In this document: positions 45,053-45,363 of the stretch, piece by piece
Layout of the letters: the number at the start of each line of letters is the position of its first letter
Numbering within the stretch: position 1 is the stretch's first letter
Source of the DNA: Escherichia coli
GTDB lineage: Bacteria > Pseudomonadota > Gammaproteobacteria > Enterobacterales > Enterobacteriaceae
Assembly: GCF_016026235.1 (NCBI RefSeq)
Contig: NZ_CP065613.1
Length of the DNA: 64,000 bases
Reading direction: 5' to 3' (one strand)
The notes under the pieces: generated by a model
The model's database searches: none
The model's input: the letters and a program-made list of their open reading frames with translations, nothing else
What the model was told of the DNA's origin: nothing
Made by a program: the position numbers and the translations under genes

Positions 45053-45129
45053 GGCCCTTTAGCTCAGTTGGTCAGAGCGAGCGACTCATAATCGCCAGGT
45101 CGCTGGTTCAAGTCCAGCAAGGGCCACCA
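45053..45129 (+). tRNA. tRNA-Ile2 (anticodon CAU, lysidine-type; close relative of E. coli ileX)
   Basis: GGCCCTTTAGCTCAGTTGGTCAGAGCGAGCGACTCATAATCGCCAGGTCGCTGGTTCAAGTCCAGCAAGGGCCACCA; cannot fully exclude Met by sequence alone. Confidence 0.8.
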
Positions 45130-45130
45130 A

Positions 45131-45207
45131 CCACCACTAGCTCATCCGGATAGAGCATCAACCTTCTAAGTTGACGGTGCGAGGTTCGAGTCCTCGGTGG
45201 TGGGCCA
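45131..45207 (+). tRNA. tRNA-Arg (anticodon UCU)
   Basis: CCACCACTAGCTCATCCGGATAGAGCATCAACCTTCTAAGTTGACGGTGCGAGGTTCGAGTCCTCGGTGGTGGGCCA; cloverleaf folds, C1-G72 pair. Confidence 0.75.
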
Positions 45208-45209
45208 GC

Positions 45210-45285
45210 GCCGACTTAGCTCAGCAGGCAGAGCAACTGACTTGTAATCAGTAGGTCACCAGTTCGATTCCGGTAGTCGGCACCA
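45210..45285 (+). tRNA. tRNA-Thr (anticodon UGU)
   Basis: GCCGACTTAGCTCAGCAGGCAGAGCAACTGACTTGTAATCAGTAGGTCACCAGTTCGATTCCGGTAGTCGGCACCA. Confidence 0.75.
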
Positions 45286-45288
45286 TAT

Positions 45289-45363
45289 GCGGGCATCGTA
45301 TAATGGCTATTACCTCAGCCTTCCAAGCTGATGATGCGGGTTCGATTCCCGCTGCCCGCTCCA
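45289..45363 (+). tRNA. tRNA-Gly (anticodon UCC; matches the host glyT sequence as I recall it)
   Basis: GCGGGCATCGTATAATGGCTATTACCTCAGCCTTCCAAGCTGATGATGCGGGTTCGATTCCCGCTGCCCGCTCCA. Confidence 0.85.

Follow-up and report, generated by a model that had tools for sequence, protein, structure and literature searches.

In this work, we followed up four tRNA genes that lie between a Q-like late antiterminator gene and the lysis genes of a prophage of Escherichia coli, within a stretch of 64,000 nucleotides (contig NZ_CP065613.1 of assembly GCF_016026235.1; from here on, the window). We found that the array is probably a self-contained operon that supplies tRNAs for rare codons; its carrier is a lambda-like prophage with a contractile tail, where it forms cargo of the late-regulatory region. 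Codon supply is the best explanation for it. The array as such is ordinary, and it is already automatically annotated in RefSeq genomes. Cassettes of tRNA genes downstream of Q are a familiar element of lambdoid phages, and this one has an uncommon composition.

ARAGORN, run on the window, placed four tRNA genes on the plus strand at 45053-45363, matching the coordinates of a first-pass annotation made from the sequence alone. All four scored above the gathering score of the Rfam model RF00005 (29 bits):

45053-45129, plus strand: tRNA-Ile2, anticodon CAU (CAT in the gene); ARAGORN, Rfam 70.5 bits
45131-45207, plus strand: tRNA-Arg(UCU), argN-family scaffold with C1-G72 as its first pair; ARAGORN, Rfam 56.4 bits
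45210-45285, plus strand: tRNA-Thr(UGU), host thrU with U16C and U20C; ARAGORN, Rfam 69.8 bits
45289-45363, plus strand: tRNA-Gly(UCC), identical to host glyT; ARAGORN, Rfam 64.9 bits

By sequence reading, the spacers between the genes are 1, 2, and 3 nt long, and the CCA end is encoded in all four. Minimum-free-energy folding of the single sequences gave no cloverleaf for Ile2, Arg, or Thr. This kind of folding commonly misses tRNA cloverleaves, and the failure is outweighed by the covariance-model scores. The earlier description of four cloverleaf tRNAs with encoded CCA within 311 bp therefore stands. The host lysT-valT cluster, at 12.4-13.4 kb, accounts for the remaining seven tRNA genes of the window.

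For the identities, we used as references the K-12 genes from NC_000913 and, for Shiga toxin (Stx) phages, the Stx2a_F349 phage (AP012530). The gene with the CAT anticodon matches ileY at 71/77 positions, ileX at 69/77, and metT at about 53/77, and its anticodon loop (CUCAUAA) is identical to that of ileX and ileY. Its acceptor stem, GGCCCUU...AAGGGCC, reads as having the pairs C4-G69 and C5-G68, which we take to be TilS determinants. In near-identical RefSeq loci, PGAP names this gene tRNA-Ile and annotates the four genes as Ile/Arg/Thr/Gly. We thus predict a tRNA-Ile2, on an Ile2-type rather than a Met body. The Arg(UCU) gene reaches only 58/77 against argU and has the unusual first pair C1-G72; its D-loop (AUCCGGAUA) gives A20 and its anticodon gives C35, both presumably ArgRS identity elements, and its anticodon loop equals that of argU. 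The Gly gene is identical to K-12 glyT (75/75), as the first-pass annotation had supposed. The Thr gene matches thrU at 74/76 positions, the sole differences being U16C and U20C in the D-loop (AGCAGGCA vs. AGUAGGUA in thrU, with the change of U16 to C present); its anticodon stem-loop is that of thrU, with UAAUCA inside. The four identities first proposed were all confirmed.

Regarding the origin of the genes, the array appears to be a recombinant of two modules: promoter-ileZ-argN, common with Stx phages, and a Thr-Gly pair made of copies of host thrU and glyT. Ile2 matches Stx ileZ at 74/77 positions and Arg matches Stx argN at 64/77, a homologue of argO is absent from the window array (the best argO match of any tRNA of the window is Thr, 57/77), and the last two genes match thrU and glyT, which points to a mosaic. 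The site is occupied by ileZ-argN-argO in Stx phages; the window array thus departs from their Ile-Arg-Arg set, as had been noted. The proposed capture from the host held for Gly; that Thr, too, copies a host gene, and the homology of Ile2 and Arg to ileZ and argN, had gone unnoticed.

In the host, thrU and glyT belong to one operon, thrU-tyrU-glyT-thrT, the source of the window Thr and Gly genes. The array lacks tyrU and thrT, and its Thr and Gly genes are separated by TAT, whereas tyrU plus 116 nt lie between them in the host operon. We found no traces of that operon around the phage Thr and Gly genes: the likeness ends at the mature tRNA ends, and the spacers and flanks are unrelated. Over 151 nt, the chromosomal thrU locus has no more than a single mismatch in 5421 of 5424 records. 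The Thr-Gly module also exists without the first two slots, in 49 of 120 IMG/VR loci among the matches listed and in the phages phi467 and SerU-LTIIb.

The following elements flank the array:

44940-44964, plus strand: intrinsic terminator, candidate tR', with the hairpin GAGCCCGC-TTTAT-GCGGGTT and then seven T
44997-45004, plus strand: Chi sequence GCTGGTGG, from sequence reading, between the terminator and the predicted tRNA promoter
45015-45043, plus strand: promoter-like element from a consensus scan, with -35 TTGCAG (45015-20), a 17-nt spacer, and -10 TATTAT (45038-43)
45478-45566, plus strand: long conserved RNA hairpin, -50.4 kcal/mol, z -6.4, arms of 31 nt
45622-45650, plus strand: terminator-like hairpin and T-run from a consensus scan, -12.1 kcal/mol
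45976-46010, plus strand: strong intrinsic terminator just upstream of the holin gene, with a perfect 10-bp stem and a T-run, -18.5 kcal/mol

The pattern TTGCR-N-17-TATNNT-9-tRNA was present in 31 of 36 distinct upstream sequences from IMG/VR, with at least seven unrelated spacers, and a looser form of it matched 0.9% of shuffled sequences. Hexamers and spacing that are kept while the spacer sequence varies are the mark of a working promoter, and we take the element as a predicted one. Between its -10 and tRNA-Ile2 lies a G+C-rich 9-nt discriminator (TCTGCCTCC). Thus, the array appears to have its own sigma-70 promoter, seemingly of the stringent type. An equivalent promoter-like element precedes ileZ in the Stx2 phage AP012530, and comparison with the promoters of ileX, ileY, and thrU gave no similarity. 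The Thr-Gly-only loci of IMG/VR present a similar promoter, followed by a 55-60 nt element with a conserved closing stem (GGUUC...GAACC), a variable interior, and fold z-scores from -1.6 to -2.7.

Upstream of this promoter-like element, the terminator (-18.2 kcal/mol including flanking A-U pairs) lies 77 nt past the stop of the Q-like gene, where a strong terminator had first been described. A hairpin with a T-run was found at the matching relative position in five loci, whose upstream alignment covers three different Q gene types, with differing loops. The Chi sequence is invariant in the same alignment, which also retains the promoter-like element with its discriminator, and occurs in 20 of the 36 distinct upstream contexts. 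A candidate isrK at 44890-44963 was weak (19.9 bits vs. a gathering score of 50) and is most likely just the terminator hairpin. On the other side, each of the five compared loci has at least one terminator-like hairpin separating the array from the holin gene. We read the array as an insulated, independently transcribed tRNA operon, which Q-modified polymerase may also traverse. The first-pass annotation had assumed delivery under late antitermination. Since a promoter-like element is kept downstream of the terminator, delivery by late antitermination only is unsupported, and the expression of the array would not need to depend on Q.

At the codon level, we compared 29 host, 21 prophage early, and 26 prophage late genes of the window, taken crudely as the longest non-overlapping ATG open reading frames (ORFs), with a few spurious ones included. 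The codons read by the four tRNAs presented these frequencies per 1000:

ATA: host 4.1, early 11.1, late 12.0
AGA: host 2.8, early 9.6, late 4.4
AGG: host 1.5, early 7.6, late 4.4
ACA: host 5.6, early 15.0, late 12.4
GGA: host 6.7, early 13.1, late 13.4

Against the host genes of the window, the prophage ratios were 3.7 for AGG, 2.8 for ATA, 2.4 for ACA, 2.3 for AGA, and 2.0 for GGA. The top seven of 61 codons by this ratio were AGG, CGA, ATA, CGG, ACA, AGA, and GGA, which puts the cognate codons at ranks 1, 3, 5, 6, and 7; by our arithmetic, the chance of all five falling in the top seven is about 4e-6. The rarity of these codons in the host and the enrichment anticipated in the first-pass annotation were therefore both present. 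The enrichment is not confined to the late genes, whose translation the array had been suggested to support: the early genes are enriched equally or more, for instance in AGA (9.6 vs. 4.4 per 1000).

In the mechanism that we infer, with promoter activity, processing, modification, and a benefit to translation as its steps, the sigma-70 promoter at 45015-45043 would start transcription 2-4 nt ahead of tRNA-Ile2 and yield a single precursor bearing Ile2(CAU), Arg(UCU), Thr(UGU), and Gly(UCC). RNase P and 3' exonucleases would release the four tRNAs with their CCA already encoded, and host enzymes would modify them, TilS turning C34 of Ile2 into lysidine so that it reads AUA. These tRNAs would supplement four minor host species with one or two host genes each (ileX/ileY, argU, thrU, and glyT), for cognate codons (AUA, AGA/AGG, ACA, and GGA) that by our counts are 2-3.7 times commoner in prophage than in host genes, early and late alike. 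The terminators on both sides would insulate the operon, so that the lysis genes would still need Q, and higher gene dosage after induction together with Q-modified read-through would raise the tRNA output.

The array belongs to a wider family. A BLAST search with its 311 nt gave matches of at least 80% coverage in 602 of 5426 complete E. coli genomes (about 11%). Eight genomes carry an array 100% identical over the 311 nt, and some genomes hold two copies. Most relatives are about 94.5% identical and annotated as Ile-Lys-Thr-Gly, with Ile-Arg-Lys-Gly, Ile-Thr-Thr-Gly, and Ile-Arg-Thr-Val as further annotated orders. When relatives were aligned (four loci, plus examples from IMG/VR), the scaffolds were unchanged and the anticodons had changed: slot 2 carries UCU, UUU, or UGU (UCG in Stx argN) and slot 3 carries UGU or UUU, so that Lys(UUU) anticodons sit on two different scaffolds. 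The "Val" gene of one relative is a decayed Gly gene. Among the matches listed, 62 IMG/VR arrays have four slots, and their slot 2 is Lys(UUU) in 37, Arg(UCU) in 17, and a degenerate form with a 5-nt loop in eight; some of the 5-nt-loop forms are called Phe(AAA), 'stop'(UUA), or undetermined. Where slot 2 of relatives is Lys(UUU), this tRNA has C16, an unusual C33, and U36AAGUU replacing the cleavage site of the tRNA nuclease AriB, to which we return below.

The structures are maintained across these variants. In 14 variants of the slot-2 scaffold, 96.9% of the cloverleaf pair cells are paired and four pairs have changed on both sides, with compensatory changes in the acceptor, anticodon, and T stems; in the acceptor stem of Gly, relatives present a compensatory change from C6-G67 to U6-A67. 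The module was found with at least three Q gene types and two lysis cassette types. In species-representative genomes, the Arg(UCU)-plus-Thr pattern had no match, and the Thr-TAT-Gly junction was found only in Citrobacter braakii and in a 423-nt low-coverage contig filed as Corallococcus, which is probably contamination. Thus, the cassette is essentially confined to prophages of Escherichia and close relatives.

Several of our results weigh against codon supply by an independent operon. The array has no tRNA for CGA and CGG, although these codons, which argN(UCG) would serve in Stx phages, match the cognate ones in enrichment, and rare-codon enrichment is generic to horizontally acquired DNA. 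Lys(UUU) outnumbers Arg(UCU) in slot 2 of relatives; its codon is the commonest one for Lys, and the host itself has several genes for this tRNA, of which five lie in the window. Moreover, the usage of AGA plus AGG is 13.8 per 1000 in Arg-type and 13.5 per 1000 in Lys-type prophages (odds ratio 1.03, p 0.68). Codon supply does not explain the identity of slot 2 and, since Arg or Lys in this slot is independent of AGA/AGG usage, it is not the whole story for the cassette family. The degenerate slot 2 in 8/62 four-slot arrays among the matches listed and the one decayed Gly gene indicate that selection on single slots is not constant. Finally, between the stop of the Q-like gene and the terminator (44864-44940), a consensus scan and inspection gave no acceptable sigma-70 match for PR'.

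Another explanation is counter-defence: the cassette would mainly keep translation going when systems of the host or of rival prophages (PARIS AriB, PrrC, colicin D) cleave tRNAs, by means of extra or cleavage-resistant copies. Among E. coli tRNAs, AriB, the nuclease of PARIS, targets Lys(UUU), Thr(UGU), and Asn(GUU), cutting U36AAUCA between C40 and A41. Its second subunit touches the tRNA at U16-U17, the change U16C in tRNA-Lys impairs cleavage, and T5 tRNAs carry C16 (PMC12409363). The candidate in the window is Thr(UGU), in which U16C would weaken AriB binding, and it departs from the otherwise near-invariant thrU only at U16C and U20C. The three targets of AriB recur downstream of Q in lambdoid phages (Asn-Thr in SfI, Lys and Thr in the array family), Lys(UUU) arose on the scaffolds of both slots 2 and 3, which tRNA fills slot 2 does not depend on codon usage, and the slot-2 Lys(UUU) of relatives, with C16, C33, and U36AAGUU, should escape AriB. 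However, the window array has no Lys tRNA, its Thr retains the full AriB site UAAUCA, and there are no cleavage-site substitutions relative to the host anywhere in the array: Gly is the host gene, and the anticodon loops of Arg and Ile2 are those of argU and ileX/ileY. Drift could suffice to explain both changes, as tRNAs in general are weakly constrained at positions 16 and 20; most prophage Thr copies are identical to thrU, and the published U16C effect concerns tRNA-Lys rather than tRNA-Thr. We consider counter-defence an unlikely main role for the array. The same doubt applies to its broader form, in which the Q-downstream cassette is primarily a counter-defence locus whose slots are re-targeted by anticodon switching (argN scaffold UCG/UCU/UUU/UGU; thrU scaffold UGU/UUU), pacing PARIS-like systems, with the U16C/U20C Thr of the window being cleavage-resistant. 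We found no paper linking AriB to the tRNAs of lambdoid prophages in the open-access literature searched.

The late-only model drawn from the first-pass annotation would leave the array without a promoter of its own, its tRNAs appearing only late in the lytic phase, when Q drives read-through of the 44940-64 terminator. This would fit the position of the array after a Q-like gene and a strong terminator and before the lysis and structural genes; Stx phages share the order of Q, terminator, and tRNAs. The late-only model is nevertheless improbable considering the promoter-like element between terminator and tRNA-Ile2 in 31/36 contexts with a variable spacer, the terminator or terminators before holin in 5/5 loci, as an independent unit would need, and the cognate codons, as rich in early as in late genes. 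Even less probable, in our view, is that the tRNA genes are neutral passengers, gained by recombination and hitch-hiking in a recombination-prone slot with little effect on fitness. The 5-nt-loop forms of slot 2, the decayed Gly gene called Val, and the Thr-Gly-only arrays described above are what such passengers could look like, and two of the four genes simply duplicate host genes. Against this, the stems are kept paired by compensatory substitutions, the promoter is conserved, and the array is found at 100% identity in eight genomes and in related forms in 11% of complete genomes, on different prophage backbones. Codon supply by a self-contained operon thus remains our preferred reading.

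Since the 1990s, lambdoid and Stx phages have been known to carry tRNA genes downstream of Q. The window array shares with this class the acceptance of all four genes by tRNA predictors, the position between Q and lysis, and the homology to ileZ and argN; it departs from the Ile-Arg-Arg composition, with Thr and Gly in slots 3-4. The closest comparison is the ileZ-argN-argO cassette of Stx phages, which occupies the same site between Q and downstream cargo or lysis genes, in the order Q, terminator, tRNAs, and likewise has a promoter-like element upstream and an argN scaffold with C1-G72 as its first pair. They differ in slot 2 (UCU in the window, UCG in Stx argN) and in the argO slot, held here by the copies of thrU and glyT. 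Besides, toxin genes follow the tRNAs in Stx phages, whereas the window has a 680-nt apparently non-coding spacer instead. Open-access searches on ileZ and argN found nothing relevant.

Arrays of the type Ile2-Lys(UUU)-Thr-Gly (PhiR47_1, vB_EcoS-689R5, IHE3034, and many genomes) have the same four slots, spacers, Thr-TAT-Gly junction, and site downstream of Q as the window. Their slot 2 has UUU in a loop with C33, an altered D-loop, and U as discriminator, and their Thr is mostly identical to thrU, whereas the window Thr is the C16/C20 form. In SfI, Sf6, ST64T, P21, and Stx phages, tRNA genes downstream of Q match an ACA bias, and rare-codon supply was given as the rationale (PMC3636060); SfI, Sf6, ST64T, and P21 hold Asn(GUU)-Thr(UGU) at the same position, a gene set unlike that of the window. 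The tRNA clusters of T5 and T4, which neutralise PARIS and retron tRNA nucleases, include Thr(UGU), and T5 carries C16 as the window Thr does (PMC12409363). However, the T5 variants also alter the cleaved anticodon stem, which the window Thr does not, and T5 and T4 are virulent phages with about 20 tRNA genes, as opposed to the four of this temperate phage, with neither Lys nor Asn.

Host DNA extends in the window to about 30.2 kb, and the prophage runs from there on. Its genes around the array are as follows:

30292-31416, minus strand: prophage integrase
44309-44863, plus strand: Q-like late antiterminator gene (DUF1133); PHROG 753 'anti-termination protein Q-like', E 9e-80, and Pfam DUF1133, E 2e-107
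46043-47222, plus strand: lysis cassette, from PHROG matches and the PGAP names in a near-identical locus
46043-46258, plus strand: holin, PHROG E 3e-36
46258-46755, plus strand: endolysin, PHROG E 1e-68
46752-47222, plus strand: Rz (Rz-like spanin), PHROG E 1e-72
46972-47178, plus strand: Rz1, an ORF embedded in Rz, assigned by position only

The early region is lambdoid, with NinB-like and HNH-like genes preceding the DUF1133 gene. The function of this last gene is putative, as read from family names alone; its protein had a weak match to Pfam Phage_antitermQ (E 1.8e-5) and no match in an NCBIfam search. The array is placed between the Q-like gene with its terminator and the holin/endolysin/spanin cassette, in agreement with the location first given. 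A DedA-family membrane protein gene (47311-47823, minus strand) lies between the spanin and small terminase genes, in a cargo-gene position, and the terminase, portal, capsid, tail sheath, and tape-measure genes of the same prophage follow it.

The 680-nt spacer between array and holin (45364-46042) contains several hairpins and no recognisable gene. Three ORFs of 71-92 aa in it had no PHROG or NCBIfam match, so we treated it as non-coding. Elsewhere, this slot holds stx2AB in Stx phages and genes for TerB and DUF3927 in other prophages, and of the five compared loci, three have a spacer of only about 290 nt. The long hairpin at 45478-45566 lies some 115 nt past the Gly tRNA, where the conserved tRNA module has its 3' edge. 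Across 18 variants, seven of its 31 pairs present compensatory changes, and many G-U pairs fit a plus-strand RNA only; its apical motif, of the GGCAGG type, was found downstream of 88 of 114 related arrays. It has no Rfam match and no T-run behind it, and it might be an RNase III processing site.

Other features of the prophage deserve mention. Its nin region codes for QueH, an epoxyqueuosine reductase (41778-42464, plus strand; Pfam PF02677, E 2e-65; no NCBIfam match), which places a gene for a tRNA-modification enzyme 2.6 kb upstream of the tRNA array. We also found hok/sok (42522-42847, plus strand; Rfam sok at 117 bits and a Hok family protein), the RalA antitoxin small RNA (31634-31812, plus strand; 216 bits), and a C4 antisense RNA adjoining isrK (36560-36748, minus strand). 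In the related genome RMDEC465 (11971-12510 of locus L001), PGAP calls the gene after TerL 'anti-CBASS protein Acb1 family protein'. The window gene at the corresponding position (50136-51602) is a clear portal protein (PHROG 146, E 1e-174); judging from position, the RefSeq name in RMDEC465 may be misleading.

With a predicted promoter of its own and terminators on both flanks, the array may produce its tRNAs in lysogens too. Expression in lysogens would bear on acquired genes rich in rare codons and on the toxins found in the same slot in Stx and LT-II phages. The mosaic origin would join a phage module (ileZ-argN) with copies of two genes from a single host operon, and the same module carries a conserved long RNA hairpin (45478-45566) that is new with respect to Rfam. 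Across about 11% of the complete E. coli genomes, slot 2 of this family switches its anticodon without a change in codon usage, and the tRNA species that recur at the site downstream of Q are published targets of PARIS. Thus, the choice between codon supply and counter-defence becomes testable for the tRNAs of temperate phages.

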